From: Escherichia coli phage KS_S14
Sequence record: LC788706.1
DNA: 64,000 nt
Reading direction: 5' to 3' (one strand)
The notes beneath the pieces were generated by a model. The model worked only from the letters and a program-made list of their open reading frames with translations, made no database searches and was not told the DNA's origin. Each line of letters opens with the position of its first letter. Within the stretch, counting starts at the first letter, position 1. Below, one piece after another: positions 1,833 to 56,226 of the stretch. Position numbers and translations under genes: made by a program.

Positions 1833-2567
1833 ATGAATAAAGCTATTATGAATATTTCCCGCAGCTTCCCGCATATTTCCCGCGTCATGATTTGGGATTT
1901 AGACGGCACTATCATTAATTCTTTCCACCGCGTAGCGCCTTGCTTTGATAGCGAGGGCAATTTAGATTTAAATAAGTATAAAAATGAAGCGTGTAAACAT
2001 CATTTAATAATGCAGGATACATTATTACCATTAGTTGAATACATGCGCCAGTGCATGAACGACGCAAATACTTTAAACATTATTTGTACCGCTCGACTAA
2101 TGAGCAAGTCGGACTATTATTATTTGCGTAAACAAGGGTTGCGCGGTCGTGGGGATAGTAATATCCGCGTTTTTTCCCGTGATACACTACACAAATATTT
2201 TGAGGCTGATAAAGTTAGCGAGATATACCACAGTAAGGACGCAGTTTATAAATCTTATTATTTTGAATTATTTAAACAGTTATATCCGAACGCTGATTTT
2301 ACAATGATTGATGATCATAAAGGTGTATTATCAGCGGCGGCATCATACGGATTTAAAACGCTGGACGCGCAAGCCGTTAACGATATTCTATCAATCGGCG
2401 TGGCATTAATAGGTGAAACCTTTATTGATGAATCCCTCGATGATGATAATGATTATCAATTCCTAGCCGACCGTTTAAAATTATGTTGGGAAGGTATGAC
2501 CGAGGAAGAACGCGCAGAATATAGTTGCAGCCCGCAACAATATATTGAGAAATTAAAAGTTGCGTAA
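1833..2567 (+). CDS. HAD-superfamily phosphatase, probable 5'-deoxyribonucleotidase (T5 Dmp-like)
   Basis: N-terminal HAD motif I (IWDLDGTI); 244 aa; sits in the pre-early gene block. Dmp identity is from memory. Confidence 0.6.
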   Translation: MNKAIMNISRSFPHISRVMIWDLDGTIINSFHRVAPCFDSEGNLDLNKYKNEACKHHLIMQDTLLPLVEYMRQCMNDANTLNIICTARLMSKSDYYYLRKQGLRGRGDSNIRVFSRDTLHKYFEADKVSEIYHSKDAVYKSYYFELFKQLYPNADFTMIDDHKGVLSAAASYGFKTLDAQAVNDILSIGVALIGETFIDESLDDDNDYQFLADRLKLCWEGMTEEERAEYSCSPQQYIEKLKVA

Positions 2568-2731: not shown

Positions 2732-2977
2732 TTAGCGCATAGAAGGGTCATCAAACCTGTATTCTGGTCTGAACTCACGGAATCTCTTCCGCGACGCCCG
2801 AGATCCATCCGACCACTCCCGCTCAAACTCCGCACGTTTCTCGTCAAACTTCCGCTCCCTTTCCGCAATCTCCCTCGTCACTCCCGCAATATATTTACGA
2901 TGCTTATTGATTGCCGCAGTCGTCCCGAAAACTCCCGCGAGTATCCCGATAATAAAAGCAATTATAATACTAAACAT
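2732..2977 (-). CDS. Small single-pass membrane protein, 81 aa
   Basis: N-terminal hydrophobic helix (FSIIIAFIIGILAGVFG) followed by a charged Arg/Glu-rich tail; start overlaps stop of the upstream ORF. Confidence 0.5.
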   Translation of the reverse strand: MFSIIIAFIIGILAGVFGTTAAINKHRKYIAGVTREIAERERKFDEKRAEFEREWSDGSRASRKRFREFRPEYRFDDPSMR

Positions 2978-3164
2978 CTAATTCCCTCTCAATTTGCAGA
3001 ATACGAGTGCTATCACAACGTTGCAGTAGTACTAGCTTTTCTAGAATAACTTGTTGTTGTTTCACTTGGGCTTCTAGAGTTTTTAGGCGGAGATACACGA
3101 CACGAGAGACAATAAGGATTACCCAGACTAATATTACTATTAGTGTAACTGCCACTTCCATCAT
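2970..3164 (-). CDS. Small single-pass membrane protein, 64 aa
   Basis: N-terminal hydrophobic helix (VAVTLIVILVWVILIV) then a coiled-coil-like segment; ATGA overlap with the upstream mini-ORF. Confidence 0.5.
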   Translation of the reverse strand: MMEVAVTLIVILVWVILIVSRVVYLRLKTLEAQVKQQQVILEKLVLLQRCDSTRILQIERELDV

Positions 3165-3268
3165 TTACGTTTCTCCGACAGTAGGGTTTCAATTCTAGCT
3201 AAGTGATTATCTAAAATACATTGACCAATAATCACAACCCCCAGTAGTGCAATAATTACCCATTCCAT
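3161..3268 (-). CDS. Mini-ORF, 35 aa, predicted membrane peptide
   Basis: Hand-translated (MEWVIIALLGVVIIGQCILDNHLARIETLLSEKRK); below the ORF-track size cut-off; TAATG overlap with upstream ORF. Confidence 0.3.
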   Translation of the reverse strand: MEWVIIALLGVVIIGQCILDNHLARIETLLSEKRK

Positions 3269-3396
3269 TATATCCACCCCGCCATAGCTGCTAACCAAAA
3301 ACCTACGAAAATAAAGAATAGGATAGTTCCGAACCCAAAACTATTTATCCAACTCTCATACACCTCTCCGCGTCTATTCTTTCTTTTGTTTGACAT
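3268..3396 (-). CDS. Mini-ORF, 42 aa, predicted membrane peptide
   Basis: Hand-translated (MSNKRKNRRGEVYESWINSFGFGTILFFIFVGFWLAAMAGWI); AGGAG about 10 nt upstream of this ATG. Confidence 0.3.
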   Translation of the reverse strand: MSNKRKNRRGEVYESWINSFGFGTILFFIFVGFWLAAMAGWI

Positions 3397-3572
3397 ATCT
3401 TTCATGCTCCTATAAGTGTGGTATTTGAAATATTCTATAACTTGTGCACAACCAACCGTGCCTATGAACTCCTAGAAGGACTTCTACTTTTCTTATATAG
3501 TGTTTTCTGCCAGTATACCGTCCAAGAAATAAAAAATTTAGTTTACTTGGATGTCTTTTTGTTTTATACTAA

Positions 3573-3839
3573 TTACAGGTAATTAGATTGCTCTAGTTTA
3601 AATTTACAATCACCGTATTTAAGGTCAAACTGACTGAGATCCCACCACCCAAACTTAGTACGGAGCTGTACTACTGGAAAGCGATCTCCCTTAATACGAA
3701 CTTTTTGAACCTTGAGGCCGTAATGTTCCTCTCCCGCACCACCAAAAGATTTTACAAATCCCATACAAAATGGTTTGGGGGCAGGTGCACAACCAGATAA
3801 CATAACTGTGGCAACTAGTGCAATCACAAACTTTTTCAT
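3573..3839 (-). CDS. llp: Lipoprotein precursor, Llp-like (receptor-blocking superinfection-exclusion lipoprotein of T5-like phages)
   Basis: Signal peptide with lipobox (VMLSGC); 88 aa; divergent from the adjacent receptor-binding protein gene as in T5; own early-type promoter. Confidence 0.6.
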   Translation of the reverse strand: MKKFVIALVATVMLSGCAPAPKPFCMGFVKSFGGAGEEHYGLKVQKVRIKGDRFPVVQLRTKFGWWDLSQFDLKYGDCKFKLEQSNYL

Positions 3840-3871
3840 ATTTATCTCTCCATTTCTAATTTATGAATCTA

Positions 3872-3900
3872 TTATAGCAAAATAGAGAGATGAAAGCAAA
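3872..3900 (-). promoter_or_regulatory. Sigma70-type early promoter (PN25 family) for llp
   Basis: On minus strand: TTGCTT, 17-nt spacer, TATAAT, then AGATTCATAAATT and GGAGAG RBS before the llp ATG. Confidence 0.5.
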
Positions 3901-3924
3901 TACATTTTTATAATAGGAGATTAT

Positions 3925-5682
3925 ATGGGTTTTTTCGCTGGAAAGTATAGCGATGGTAAGACCGTACTATCTTTAAATACTGAATCTGGTGGTGACATTA
4001 ATCGTCACTATAGTCCAAGTAATAATAGTATTTTTCATAGTGATATGCCATTTGTTCTAGTTGATGGTACTTATGAGGCAGGATTAGGTGATGCCGGGAA
4101 TGGGTTTTTCGTATGTCAGATGCCTCCTGATATAGTAAATATTAAATCTAATGATCCTGGTAGAGTTATACTAACTGCTATTGAGATTAATGGTACTCAC
4201 AGAGCTTTTCTTAATGGTACTCAGAGTAAAGTTGGTCAAACTATAGTTGCCACTCAAGCAGACCCCTTTAGATCTTTTGCTAGTGTTTCTCAAACCAGTG
4301 GATTTGCATTTGGTAATAGTCTAGCATCTGGAACTTATAATTATAACCCATCGATAGGGCACGAAGAATCTATTTCTAGGAGTGGTACAGGTGGTACTAC
4401 GTTACATAGTACCTACCATGGGATAGTTAGGCCTGGTGCGGGAGCTCCTGTAGGTGTTACTGTTGCAGAAGCCTTTGCACAGTTAGGTTTTCCTACTAAT
4501 AGTAGCACAGTACCTGTAGATGGGAATAACCCGTATTATTGGGATCCTGGATGGATGTCGCCTCTAGGAGCAGCACATAGAGGGCATGATTGGTTTTATG
4601 TTTGCAACTCTAATATACGTGGATACGGTGGGGTTAGACAAGGGCTCCCAGGTAATGTAAATACTATGTACCACGACGGTGGGAACAGATTTGTTTGTAG
4701 GGGATCTACTACTAATTTAGCTAACCAGTCGGGTGACTCTACAATACTACAGGATTGGTATAATATAACCCCTACTAAGGTTATTTGGTATGTTCTTAAT
4801 TTAAGGTACTCTAATGGTGGAATGAGTATTTCAGGCAACCCCTTTACTGGTTCTGATATTCTTATATCTCCTTCTAATTTCATAATTAAAGGGGTAAGTC
4901 TCCCTAATACCGGGTATAAATTTATAAATCAGAATGCTTTTGGTAACCTAGGTTACCGTCCTGATATGGAGTATATAGGAAATAACGCAGCGTATACCGG
5001 GGTTTTTGGGGATACCACGGCAAGGTGTGAACTTGTAGGGTCTAGTAATGGAGGATTATGGTCTCCTGTAGACTATGGTGGAGCTAAATCCCAAATTAGC
5101 ATTTACAAATTCGGAGCTGGTAAGCAATGGTATGTAAACTCTAGGGATAATACTATCGGTAATGAACACGGGGTTGTTTGGGGACCATCAGCAGTTCCAT
5201 TACGACTTTTTGGTGGAAATGTAGGTAGCTCTTACATGGGGGATGATATTACTCCCAGCTACCCGGGAACAGGGGATAGATACGTTGGTTTATCAACTAT
5301 TGGGCTAGGTATACCGGGTGGCAATGCTACAGTAATTCTTACCACTGAAGTTATATCAGGTAACCTTAACTGTGCAGGTGTTCCTGCTAATACATGGAAT
5401 AACGGTGTGTTTCAAGTGCAAGGAAGAAGAGCATATAGCTATAGTAATGGAGATGCAATATTCCACCAGATTTTAACATTACCAGTAGGGTATTTAGTAC
5501 CTTTTCATACTACATCTGCTTTTAGATACACACCTAACAATGCCCTAAGTAGAAATAGTTTTATATACACTGCTAAAAATCTGGGGAATGGAAATGTAGA
5601 GTTAGGGGTAGTTATGCACGTAAGTTTAGGTAGTGCAGTTTTCCTACCGAGATTAAGAGTAACAGTTCAACGCCTTACCTAA
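3925..5682 (+). CDS. Receptor-binding tail protein (pb5/Oad-like)
   Basis: 585 aa, rich in Gly/Asn/Ser/Thr/Tyr; divergently adjacent to llp, the T5 oad-llp arrangement. Confidence 0.55.
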
Positions 5683-5692
5683 AGGAGGAAAT

Positions 5693-6175
5693 ATGGCAAA
5701 TGATGTATTAGTACCAGATCTTATGTCCCCTGAAGGGATGGATGTAATTGAAGCATATTTACAGTGTGGCAGCGATGTGCCTTCTGCCGCACGTAGTCTT
5801 GGGATGTCCGAAATTGCTTTTCGAGATATTATGAATCGTAGTGAAGTTAAGAACTACTTAAATGATATTTTTATGGAGAGTGGTTTCCGTAACAGAGATC
5901 GTTTATTTGGTGTTCTGGATGAAGTTATCAAGCGTAAACTAGAGGAACTAGAAGAAACTGGCATGGGTTCTGACCAAGATATTATGGATATTCTCTGGAA
6001 AGCACATAAAATGAAAATGGAAGAAATGAAAATGATGGTAGAACTGGAGAAAGTGAAGGCAGCAGCCCGTACTCCAGCTAACCAGACCAACATCCAGAAT
6101 AATATTATTGCTGGAGCTGGGGATCAAAACTACATGGACTTAATTACTTCCCTAGCTACTGGAGGTAAGAAGTAA
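5693..6175 (+). CDS. Putative terminase small subunit
   Basis: 160 aa with an HTH-like segment ([17 protein letters not shown]); stop overlaps the start of the large terminase. Confidence 0.5.
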
Positions 6176-7491
6176 TGGAAGTATCAAGACCTTACGTTAA
6201 TACAGTAGATGTTATTGATTTCGGAATAGATAAACGTTTCTTTCGTCTACCTGTTTCGGGAATACTAGCACAAGAAGGTATTACACCTAATGGTCCTCAA
6301 ATAGCGATTATTAATGCTCTAGAGGATCCTAGACATCGTTTTGTAACGGCGTGTGTATCACGCCGTGTAGGTAAATCCTTCATCGCATATACTCTTGGGT
6401 TCCTAAAATTGCTGGAACCTAATGTGAAGGTGTTAGTAGTTGCTCCTAACTATTCACTGGCCAACATCGGATGGTCTCAGATTCGTGGTCTTATTAAAAA
6501 ATATGGCCTACAAACTGAACGTGAGAACGCTAAAGATAAGGAAATTGAGTTAGCTAATGGTTCTCTGTTTAAACTAGCTTCCGCTGCTCAGGCTGACTCC
6601 GCAGTTGGACGTTCATATGATTTTATCATCTTTGACGAGGCGGCAATTTCCGATGTGGGTGGTGATGCCTTCAGGGTTCAGCTGCGTCCTACTCTAGATA
6701 AACCTAATTCTAAGGCTCTATTTATTTCCACACCTCGTGGAGGTAACTGGTTTAAAGAGTTTTACGCCTACGGATTTGATGATACGTTGCCTAACTGGGT
6801 ATCTATTCATGGTACATATCGTGATAACCCTCGTGCTGACCTGAATGATATAGAAGAAGCACGTCGTACGGTTAGTAAAAACTACTTCCGCCAGGAATAT
6901 GAAGCTGACTTCTCTGTATTTGAAGGTCAGATTTTTGATACTTTCAATGCTATTGACCATGTTAAAGACCTTAAGGGTATGCGTCATTTCTTTAAAGATG
7001 ATGAAGCATTCGAAACGTTGCTTGGTATCGACGTTGGTTATCGTGATCCTACAGCAGTTCTTACTATTAAGTATCATTACGATACGGATACTTACTATGT
7101 ATTAGAAGAGTATCAGCAGGCGGAGAAAACTACAGCTCAGCATGCTGCTTACATTCAGCACTGTATAGATCGTTATAAAGTTGATCGTATTTTTGTTGAC
7201 TCCGCGGCAGCTCAGTTCCGTCAAGACTTAGCTTATGAGCATGAAATTGCATCAGCTCCAGCTAAAAAATCTGTCCTAGATGGCCTAGCATGCCTGCAAG
7301 CACTGTTCCAACAGGGTAAGATTATTGTAGATGCCTCATGCTCCTCCTTAATTCATGCACTGCAGAACTATAAGTGGGACTTCCAAGAAGGTGAAGAGAA
7401 ATTATCACGTGAAAAACCACGTCATGATGCTAATTCTCACCTTTGTGATGCGCTGCGCTATGGAATTTACTCTATTTCCCGTGGTAAATAA
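6175..7491 (+). CDS. Terminase large subunit
   Basis: 438 aa; Walker A-like (VSRRVGKSF) and Walker B-like (FIIFDEAA) motifs in the N-terminal ATPase, nuclease-type acidic residues C-terminally; located immediately before the portal. Confidence 0.85.
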   Translation: MEVSRPYVNTVDVIDFGIDKRFFRLPVSGILAQEGITPNGPQIAIINALEDPRHRFVTACVSRRVGKSFIAYTLGFLKLLEPNVKVLVVAPNYSLANIGWSQIRGLIKKYGLQTERENAKDKEIELANGSLFKLASAAQADSAVGRSYDFIIFDEAAISDVGGDAFRVQLRPTLDKPNSKALFISTPRGGNWFKEFYAYGFDDTLPNWVSIHGTYRDNPRADLNDIEEARRTVSKNYFRQEYEADFSVFEGQIFDTFNAIDHVKDLKGMRHFFKDDEAFETLLGIDVGYRDPTAVLTIKYHYDTDTYYVLEEYQQAEKTTAQHAAYIQHCIDRYKVDRIFVDSAAAQFRQDLAYEHEIASAPAKKSVLDGLACLQALFQQGKIIVDASCSSLIHALQNYKWDFQEGEEKLSREKPRHDANSHLCDALRYGIYSISRGK

Positions 7492-49260: not shown

Positions 49261-49291
49261 ATTTAAACTCCTCTCTCAAATTTATGAATCT

Positions 49292-49321
49292 ATTATACAG
49301 AAATTTTTTGCACTATGCAAA
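49292..49321 (-). promoter_or_regulatory. Strong sigma70-type early promoter, near-identical to the T5 PN25 promoter
   Basis: Minus strand reads TTTATTTGCAT...CTGTATAATAGATTCATAAATTTGAGAGAGGAGTTTAAATATG; the part from CTGTATAAT onward matches PN25 as I remember it. Confidence 0.65.
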
Positions 49322-56127: not shown

Positions 56128-56226
56128 AGCTTTCTCCTCTCAAATTTATAAATCTATTATATATAAATTTTTGGCTGAAAGCAAATAAAATAAAAGCCAG
56201 GTCGACTAGCAACCCGGCTGATTAGC

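Follow-up and report, generated by a model that had tools for sequence, protein, structure and literature searches.

Phage T5 carries a receptor-binding protein (RBP), pb5, and a small lipoprotein, Llp, both of which act on the outer-membrane receptor FhuA (PDB 8a8c and 8b14; van den Berg et al. 2022; Degroux et al. 2023). T5 Llp binds FhuA from the periplasm and jams its plug, with EL7 and EL8 folded inward, and its N- and C-terminal parts are joined by a disulphide between Cys11 and Cys58 in mature numbering (PMC9586334). Early expression is known only for T5 llp, from a paper title (Decker et al. 1994, cited in PMC8624392). Phages BF23 and DT571/2 use BtuB as their receptor (PMC4728585; PMC8624392), and receptor blocking by BF23 Llp is ascribed to Mondigler 2006 as cited within PMC4728585. 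For DT57C and DT571/2, the llp genes of which are identical, BtuB use and Llp-mediated exclusion have been demonstrated (Golomidova et al. 2016); when DT57C llp was expressed, BF23, DT57C and DT571/2 plated with an efficiency reduced by a factor of more than 100, and T5 was unaffected (PMC4728585). The RBP clusters of these phages predict the receptor, and the majority of Markadamsvirinae target BtuB (PMC8594841). A further survey lists 23 BtuB-binding Demerecviridae with a homologue ~30% identical to pb5, and FhuA was used by only T5 and CEV2 in a 25-phage panel (bioRxiv 10.64898/2026.04.02.716166). The Cor lipoproteins of T1-like and lambdoid phages are likewise small outer-membrane proteins that have a conserved cysteine pair and inactivate their own TonB-dependent receptor, which for classical Cor proteins is FhuA (PMC9586334); their genes differ in that they lie 3′ of a gpJ-type tail-tip locus, in phages of unrelated backbone.

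Here we compare the corresponding locus of Escherichia coli phage KS_S14 with these systems. The window, that is, the whole stretch of 64,000 nucleotides analysed (LC788706.1), derives from a Tequintavirus with ~95% nucleotide identity to vB_Eco_mar004NP2 and SPLA5b. The first 25 kb of the window are only ~95% identical overall to the SPLA5b/mar004NP2 type, and KS_S14 is therefore a distinct though related isolate. We conclude that the two divergent genes examined here very probably form the module by which a BF23-type Tequintavirus recognizes the host and blocks the receptor, and we found no evidence contradicting this reading in our analysis.

The llp gene (3573..3839, minus strand) encodes an 88-residue superinfection exclusion (receptor-blocking) lipoprotein of the BF23/BtuB type, and the RBP gene (3925..5682, plus strand), an oad/hrs homologue assigned to the BtuB class, encodes 585 residues; an 85-bp divergent intergenic region (3840..3924) separates them. 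Shine–Dalgarno motifs were read from the sequence on both sides, GGAG for llp (3848..3851, minus strand; 8 nt upstream of the ATG) and AGGAG for the RBP gene (3915..3919, plus strand; 5 nt upstream of the ATG). The RBP gene is followed by the genes for the small terminase subunit (terS; 5693..6175, plus strand; PHROG 3802, E 6.5e-91) and the large terminase subunit (terL; 6175..7491), both ~100% nucleotide-identical to those of SPLA5b. On the other flank, four small open reading frames lie downstream of llp on the same strand (2732..3405, minus strand; PHROG 8596 for 3268..3405). They are homologues of T5.159-162 and of BF23 Orf1-4, which are likewise located 3′ of llp; the T5 record annotates its four as single-transmembrane proteins, and the gene order is common to the T5, BF23 and SPLA5b records. 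In SPLA5b and mar004NP2, these small open reading frames differ, being ~90% identical to those of KS_S14. The BF23 locus (DQ097178; Mondigler, Ayoub & Heller 2006) has the same divergent order, small open reading frames, terminase gene and receptor class, and the T5 record has the identical divergent order, terS–oad–llp. An RBP gene directly upstream of terS and divergent from llp was found in KS_S14, T5 and ten other phages among the records compared, in line with the positional rule stated in PMC8594841 and bioRxiv 10.64898/2026.04.02.716166. The original prediction of a T5-like divergent pair with a 585-residue RBP thus agrees exactly with the open reading frame coordinates and with the T5 record, and the length of roughly 640 residues that it gave for pb5 was confirmed as 640, which makes the KS_S14 protein 55 residues shorter. 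Both genes are genuine: their products match PHROG 4815 and PHROG 1119, respectively, from end to end and have hundreds of homologous records in tblastn searches.

The RBP matches PHROG 4815 ('receptor binding tail protein') with an E-value of 2.3e-273, residues 1 to 585 covering profile positions 1 to 650, and T5 pb5 falls into the same family. In a PDB sequence search, the pb5 chains 8b14_B and 8a8c_B were matched at E 1e-49, and tblastn retrieved homologues from 540 phage records; Pfam and NCBIfam contain no model for the protein. Homology and gene position thus both place it in the pb5/Oad/Hrs tail-tip family. Its closest relatives are the RBPs of SPLA5b and mar004NP2, to each of which it is identical at 584 of 585 residues (99.8%). 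It is 73.7% identical to DT571/2 Hrs (586 residues), 70% to the Stitch protein, 66% to BF23 Hrs (BLASTP) and 57% to the phiR2-01 protein, and only ~34–35% identical, by global alignment, to the ~640-residue RBPs of T5 (FhuA) and S124 (FepA-type). The EPS7 RBP was left out of these figures, as its deposited sequence has frameshifts and ten in-frame stops. SPLA5b forms no plaques on a btuB deletion strain, and btuB is the susceptibility gene identified for it by TraDIS, a transposon screen (PMC10949491). The KS_S14 protein is predicted to belong to the BtuB class because of the 584/585 match to the SPLA5b RBP and the 66–74% identity to the Hrs proteins of BF23 and DT571/2; it clusters with those of proven BtuB users and has the ~30% identity to pb5 typical of this subclass. 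The proposal that the shorter protein has a specificity other than that of T5 is borne out by this assignment, and high identity to pb5 along the whole length, which would have spoken against it, was not found: BLASTP gave 30% identity over the full length, with 95 gap positions. The BtuB-type RBP is no unusual variant; it is the majority type, carried by most T5-like phages (PMC8594841; bioRxiv 10.64898/2026.04.02.716166), and T5 itself is the exception.

The divergence of the RBP from other BtuB-type proteins is centred on two regions, which are also those that set the 585-residue allele apart from the 595-residue BF23 allele. The main variable region (residues ~101–270; 4225..4734, plus strand) has the lowest identity, at 42–62% of amino acids in most bins against 73–96% in the flanking bins, and 47–73% nucleotide identity to the aligned alleles. 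DT571/2 is an exception here, with ~80% identity over residues 91–180; its RBP is a different mosaic, closer to that of KS_S14 in this segment and more distant in residues 316–405. The phiR2-01 protein has lower identity throughout, not only in the variable regions. The main variable region corresponds by homology to the segment of pb5 bearing the FhuA-inserting loops L1 and L2 (loop residues from PMC9586334): T5 Gln115 aligns with residue 114 of the KS_S14 protein, and T5 Phe170 lies within a T5-specific insertion after residue 171. The second variable region (residues ~451–550; 5275..5574, plus strand; 51–73% amino-acid identity to other BtuB-type proteins, phiR2-01 excluded) covers the equivalent of pb5 loop L4; in KS_S14, this loop is shorter. 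T5 L4 (residues 570–590) corresponds to residues 529–540 of the KS_S14 protein, with 12 and 6 extra residues in T5, and BF23 Hrs has a seven-residue insertion at the equivalent place. The alignment gaps to pb5 concentrate at the loops that pb5 inserts into FhuA, and the difference between 585 and 640 residues comes from shorter loops at these places.

The 88-residue Llp begins MKKFVIALVATVMLSGC and carries a signal peptide with the lipobox L-S-G-C at residues 14–17 (3789..3839, minus strand), recognized by the Pfam lipid-attachment model LPAM_1 over residues 1–18 (24 bits against a curated cut-off of 20). Cys17 is the predicted lipidated first residue, leaving a mature protein of 72 residues; the Llp alignment shows a conserved LSGC motif, with no variation at G16 and C17. 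In the Lol pathway, the +2 residue decides the sorting of lipoproteins, and alanine is compatible with the outer membrane. The +2 residue of the KS_S14 protein is alanine and, by this general rule, would be compatible with outer-membrane sorting. The lipobox model was the sole match in Pfam and NCBIfam, which hold no family model for Llp, and a weak match to DUF5746, below its cut-off, was set aside. A PDB sequence search with Llp yielded only chance-level matches (best E 0.22, a signal-peptide similarity to TrwH) and did not retrieve T5 Llp, and the relationship was therefore tested through PHROG profiles and hhalign. The protein matches PHROG 1119 ('Cor superinfection exclusion protein') over the whole profile with an E-value of 4.7e-25, and T5 Llp falls into the same family (E 1.1e-19); hhalign gave probabilities of 83.6% for T5 Llp and 97.4% for a Drexlerviridae Cor protein (phage vojen). 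Lipobox and profile homology together thus assign it to the Llp/Cor family, and tblastn found homologues in 399 phage records. T5 Llp, at 77 residues, is related only weakly by BLASTP (E 1e-4, due partly to the signal peptide; ~28–30% identity). Within the BtuB type, conservation is far tighter: the KS_S14 protein is identical to that of pork27, differs from DT571/2 Llp at one residue (98.9% identity) and from SPLA5b Llp by four substitutions (95.5%), and is 97.7% identical to BF23 Llp. The S124 'receptor blocking protein' was excluded from this comparison, as the annotated protein is no lipoprotein. Two further cysteines, C25 and C78, are invariant in six BtuB-type Llps; the alignment reveals the residues and not the bond itself. 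C25 aligns with the T5 Llp cysteine at precursor position 26, which is mature Cys11, and C78 aligns with the C-terminal cysteine of a Cor protein. The expectation that the lipoprotein masks the receptor of its neighbouring RBP fits these data well, as Llp is of the BF23 type and the DT57C protein, which differs at one residue, excludes BF23-type phages and not T5.

A promoter of the T5 early, PN25-like type precedes llp (3864..3899, minus strand), with a −35 element TTGCTT (3899..3894), a 17-bp spacer and a −10 element TATAAT (3876..3871), followed by AGATTCA. A generic promoter scan did not list it, because TTGCTT matches only three of the six positions of TTGACA, and a dedicated composite-pattern search was used in its place. 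The composite pattern matched at llp with zero mismatches, and the window contains three such matches, where chance alone would give 0.04. The site has all the hallmarks of the PN25 type, namely an A-rich upstream block, TTGCTT, the 17-bp spacer, TATAAT and the conserved downstream sequence AGATTCATAAATT, and it is identical to PN25 at 45 of 66 ungapped positions; the PN25 reference sequence is itself present at 100% in T5, under a 'promoter' feature. The llp promoter of BF23 is all but identical, with 97% mean column identity over the aligned stretch of promoter and early llp, and the BF23 record annotates the same hexamers as the −35 and −10 elements of llp. In the T5 record, the region equivalent to 3840..3924 carries annotated promoters in both directions. 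The prediction that llp has its own PN25-family promoter is thereby confirmed.

These features suggest how the module may operate. KS_S14 shares with T5 the PHROG families, the genomic position and the promoter type and presumably has a similar mode of action. Its RBP would be a monomeric protein, present in a single copy where the straight central tail fibre ends; it would bind BtuB, the TonB-dependent vitamin-B12 transporter, irreversibly and thereby trigger DNA ejection. Llp would be produced early, under the control of a strong PN25-type sigma-70 promoter of its own, and would bind BtuB, probably from the periplasm or at the plug. In the manner of T5 Llp on FhuA, it may lock the extracellular loops of BtuB in a conformation that refuses the RBP; blocking of BtuB would exclude superinfection and spare progeny from adsorbing to debris. 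PDB sequence searches with the RBP and Llp found no solved BtuB-type RBP or BtuB-type Llp, and the binding geometry and allosteric blocking proposed here are therefore extrapolated from FhuA.

Other receptors have to be weighed against BtuB. The low identity of residues 101–270 to most other BtuB-type alleles might indicate that the central variable region confers a new specificity, for FepA or an undescribed outer-membrane protein, and the authors of the SIA3lw report speculated on another receptor for a near-identical RBP, as S. Typhimurium was reportedly not infected. The SIA3lw locus is 97.5% nucleotide-identical to that of KS_S14, and O-antigen shielding or tail-fibre differences would explain that failure equally well. 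Another receptor is very improbable: SPLA5b, with a single RBP residue different, strictly needs btuB, RBPs of the FepA and FhuA types are far more distant and longer, the adjoining Llp is of the BtuB-blocking type, and DT57C Hrs is similarly divergent from BF23 Hrs yet uses BtuB. We attach next to no weight to the idea that the protein is a functional equivalent of pb5 that binds FhuA, its length being irrelevant. Fold family and genomic position are indeed common to the two, but the identity is low, the 95 gap positions cluster at the very loops that enter FhuA, the DT57C lipoprotein gives no protection against T5, and T5 and CEV2 are the sole FhuA users in the panel cited above. FhuA specificity, FepA specificity and a novel receptor class were accordingly rejected on the SPLA5b match, the Llp type and the divergence from the pb5 and S124 proteins.

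A separate question is whether Llp, while still blocking BtuB, acts unlike T5 Llp, for example at the cell surface or through direct steric occlusion. Its weak similarity to T5 Llp and the lack of a BtuB–Llp structure among the PDB search results leave room for such a mechanism, and van den Berg et al. deem surface-exposed exclusion lipoproteins conceivable for other receptors (PMC9586334). The same authors argue, however, that jamming should generalize across TonB-dependent transporters with a plug, of which BtuB, like FhuA, is one, and both the cysteine pair and the Cor/Llp profile as a whole are conserved; we regard a different mechanism as unlikely.

Nucleotides 3840..3924 are 98–99% identical to BF23, DT571/2 and Kenya-K16, identity to the same phages drops to 77% over the opening 150 nt of the RBP gene, and it returns to 92–96% in terS. 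The 85-bp intergenic region and terS mark the left and right recombination boundaries of an RBP cassette. Across phages in which the RBP gene has been swapped by recombination, llp remains 96–99% identical, a pattern of exchange beside a conserved llp noted earlier by Golomidova et al. 2016 (PMC4728585). The original prediction had the lipoprotein co-evolving with the RBP; this stands between receptor classes, but not within the BtuB class, in which llp is near-invariant and the RBP gene is exchanged as a cassette. As a tentative explanation, which we hold to be possible though rather doubtful, the 585-residue allele of the mar004NP2/SPLA5b type may contact BtuB through loops other than those used by the BF23 and DT57C alleles, and allele swapping beside an unchanging llp may allow phages to track or evade variation in the surface loops of BtuB between E. 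coli, Salmonella and other hosts while the same periplasmic blocker is kept. If so, RBP alleles of one receptor class would vary in their host range or in how sensitive they are to btuB point mutants.

Earlier publications had already described the module, its receptor, the function of the lipoprotein, the promoter and the recombination pattern, and about a hundred deposited phage genomes carry the 585-residue RBP allele. Structural questions for the whole class concern the docking of a pb5-like RBP on BtuB and whether plug jamming, known for T5 Llp on FhuA, is also the way in which a BtuB-type Llp acts. For annotation, it can be predicted with high confidence that BtuB is the terminal receptor of KS_S14. 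The phage is also predicted to exclude BF23-type but not T5-type phages, which would be relevant to the composition of phage cocktails.

The gene for the small receptor-blocking lipoprotein Llp (llp; an 88-residue open reading frame (ORF), 3573..3839, minus strand) and the gene for the receptor-binding tail-tip protein (RBP; a 585-residue ORF, 3925..5682, plus strand) diverge from an 85-bp intergenic region, and the sequence and ORF list agree exactly with the coordinates originally predicted. The terminase small subunit gene (terS; 5693..6175) and large subunit gene (6175..7491) lie downstream of the RBP gene. The predicted T5-like arrangement is borne out by the T5 reference genome, which contains terS, oad (encoding the FhuA-binding RBP pb5; 640 residues, in line with the length of about 640 originally given) and a divergent llp. 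Beyond llp, T5 carries four small membrane-protein ORFs and then the terminal repeat, and the four small ORFs downstream of llp in KS_S14 (2732-3405, minus strand) have counterparts in T5 (T5.159-162, annotated as single-transmembrane proteins), BF23 (Orf1-4) and SPLA5b. The final ORF of the KS_S14 set gives a LapA_dom match of 22 bits, below the cut-off of 28. Over its first 25 kb, the window shares ~95% nucleotide identity with Escherichia phage vB_Eco_mar004NP2 and Salmonella phage SPLA5b; for many further Tequintavirus genomes the figure is 92-94%. The 2.4-kb llp/RBP locus is 98.7% identical to those of mar004NP2 and SPLA5b, and at least 80% of it is covered in 116 phage records.

By comparison with BF23, whose record carries a 'right terminal redundant region' feature, the terminal-repeat boundary falls at approximately 2691 (70 of 85 aligned positions identical), and, granted this approximate boundary, positions 1-2691 would be terminal-repeat DNA. 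In a 244-residue ORF (1833-2567, plus strand), a DLDGT motif of the HAD type lies close to the N terminus, and no Pfam model matches. The ORF presumably resembles the T5 dmp 5′-deoxyribonucleotidase, and the 'polynucleotide kinase' annotation of its SPLA5b homologue may therefore be wrong.

The RBP matches phrog_4815 ('receptor binding tail protein'; PHROGs) end to end (E 2e-273), and tblastn detected homologues in 540 phage records that fall into clear identity bands: at least 90% (104 records, such as mar004NP2 and SPLA5b), 60-80% (293 records, such as DT571/2, Stitch and EPS7), ~55% (such as Yersinia phage phiR2-01) and ~24-31% (such as T5, FepA-type phages, and Klebsiella and Proteus phages). 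The original prediction of a specificity class different from that of T5 holds, as identity to pb5 is 30% with 95 gap positions, rather than high along the whole length, and the RBP is identical at 584 of 585 residues (sole difference D46E) to that of SPLA5b, a phage for which a TraDIS screen identified btuB, encoding the vitamin B12 transporter, as the susceptibility gene and which formed no plaques once btuB was deleted (PMC10949491). Conservation with pb5 is best over the first ~110 residues and between residues ~270 and ~531; these parts also align with the pb5 chains of known structure (8b14_B and 8a8c_B, E 1e-49). The RBP is 66% identical to BF23 Hrs (595 residues, GenBank DQ097178) and 73.7% identical to DT571/2 Hrs (586 residues). 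BF23, DT57C, DT571/2, EPS7, SPC35 and phiR2-01 are established BtuB users (PMC8624392; PMC4728585), and according to the BASEL study BtuB is the target of 'the vast majority' of Markadamsvirinae and the receptor is predictable from RBP clusters (PMC8594841). A 2026 preprint describes 23 BtuB-binding Demerecviridae, with RBPs 'approximately 30%' identical to pb5, versus only two FhuA users (bioRxiv 10.64898/2026.04.02.716166). Together, the near-identity to SPLA5b, the known BtuB users and these surveys indicate that the 585-residue RBP is, judged by its sequence, of the common BtuB type, the unusual one being that of T5 itself. The EPS7 RBP gene (901-2682 of comparison locus L008) is frameshifted in the deposited sequence: the expected frame contains 10 stops, tblastn aligns the gene in three pieces and no CDS is annotated. 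The protein is not directly readable from CP000917.

In pb5, loops L1 (tip Gln115), L2 (Phe170) and L4 (residues 570-590) insert into FhuA (PMC9586334). Mapped by global alignment, Gln115 corresponds to RBP residue 114, Phe170 sits within an eight-residue T5-specific insertion after residue 171, and the counterpart of L4 is residues 529-540, a stretch in which T5 is longer by 12 + 6 residues; T5 also carries insertions after residues 226, 234, 256 and 266. Variation among BtuB-type alleles is greatest in residues ~101-270 and ~451-550 (42-62% identity in most bins, versus 73-96% in flanking bins), and the T5-specific loop insertions fall in the same regions. We infer that the receptor-contacting end of the molecule would be the site of both the shortening relative to pb5 and the differences between alleles.

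The Llp N terminus, MKKFVIALVATVMLSGC, passes the Pfam lipid-attachment model LPAM_1 (24 bits, cut-off 20), and Llp matches phrog_1119 ('Cor superinfection exclusion protein'; E 5e-25), the PHROG that also holds T5 Llp. Identity is 100% to Pork27 and related phages, 98.9% to DT571/2 (one residue, M26T), 97.7% to BF23, 95.5% to SPLA5b, 67% to the Epseptimavirus proteins of Stitch and TrudiGerster, 51% to phiR2-01 gp145 and ~28-30% to T5. In the BtuB-type Llp alignment, the lipobox cysteine is Cys17, and two further cysteines, C25 and C78, are invariant; C25 aligns with a cysteine of the T5 Llp Cys11-Cys58 disulphide, which ties the two termini together (PMC9586334). A profile of six BtuB-type Llps matched the Cor-like lipoprotein of the T1-like Drexlerviridae phage vojen (NC_049824; 3501-3728 of locus L013; 38% identity to the profile) at 97.4% probability and T5 Llp at 83.6% (hhalign). 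The closer match to vojen is a hint that resemblance among these lipoproteins might follow the receptor and not phage ancestry. In the FepA-type phage S124 (MH370375), the gene labelled 'receptor blocking protein, T5 Llp-like' (467-778 of locus L011, minus strand) encodes a 103-residue acidic protein without a signal peptide or lipobox; the label seems questionable, and FepA-class phages may carry their actual exclusion gene at another position.

The anticipated masking of the same receptor is supported by the single-residue difference from DT571/2 Llp and by plasmid-borne DT57C llp, which lowered the plating of BF23, DT57C and DT571/2 by a factor of more than 100 and had no effect on T5; BtuB blocking is also reported for BF23 Llp (PMC4728585). 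T5 Llp is periplasmic and engages the FhuA plug in a non-native state, whereupon loops EL7 and EL8 turn inward and cover the pb5 site; the authors of that study proposed such 'jamming' as general to other TonB-dependent transporters (PMC9586334). By analogy, we infer that the KS_S14 protein would jam BtuB as T5 Llp jams FhuA. A sequence search of the PDB found no structure of a BtuB-type RBP or Llp.

On the llp strand, the intergenic region reads ...AAAAATGTATTTGCTTTCATCTCTCTATTTTGCTATAATAGATTCATAAATTAGAAATGGAGAGATAAAT-ATG, with a −35 element TTGCTT (3899..3894), a 17-bp spacer, a −10 element TATAAT (3876..3871) and GGAG (3851..3848), all on the minus strand. The proposed PN25-family promoter is recovered here: when it is aligned without gaps to the T5 early promoter PN25, 45 of 66 positions are identical, among them the A-tract upstream, both hexamers and 13 bases beyond the −10 element. 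The PN25 sequence used for the comparison occurs at 100% identity in T5 under a 'promoter' feature. The BF23 depositors annotate exactly these hexamers for llp, and the T5 llp promoter has the same layout. A generic promoter scan of the window did not list this promoter because TTGCTT matches TTGACA at only three of six positions; a composite pattern gave three matches, against 0.04 expected by chance. Two further PN25-like promoters (49285-49320 and 56149-56184, both minus strand) follow the pattern TTGC.-N18-TATAATAGATT.A, and the latter, TTGCTTTCAGCCAAAAATTTATATATAATAGATTTA, is closest to PN25 itself and precedes a Shine-Dalgarno sequence and ATG. Documented early expression is confined to T5 llp (Decker et al. 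1994, cited in PMC8624392); KS_S14 llp would likewise be expressed early.

The suggested co-evolution of llp and RBP holds between receptor classes (T5 versus KS_S14: RBP 35% by global alignment, Llp 28%), but not within the BtuB class. Against BF23, DT571/2 and Kenya-K16, nucleotide identity is 97-99% in llp and the intergenic region, ~77% in the first 150 nt of the RBP gene and 92-96% in terS; in the middle of the RBP gene it is 47-65% (BF23 and Kenya-K16) or 63-73% (DT571/2). SPLA5b shows the opposite pattern: identity is 99-100% across the RBP gene, terS and terL but falls to 96% in llp and to 90% beyond it on the left. The sharp identity steps at both RBP gene ends (3840-3924 and 5683-5692) against the former three phages, together with the different step near llp against SPLA5b, indicate repeated recombination at the gene borders. 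This identity pattern argues that the RBP gene acts as a recombination cassette, one edge of which falls within the intergenic region. Exactly this conclusion was already drawn by Golomidova et al. (2016), who argued that the swap is tolerated because Llp recognizes the receptor, not the RBP (PMC4728585). The original observation is thus confirmed and its interpretation supported, and the llp/RBP module, every part of which has been described before, is very common.
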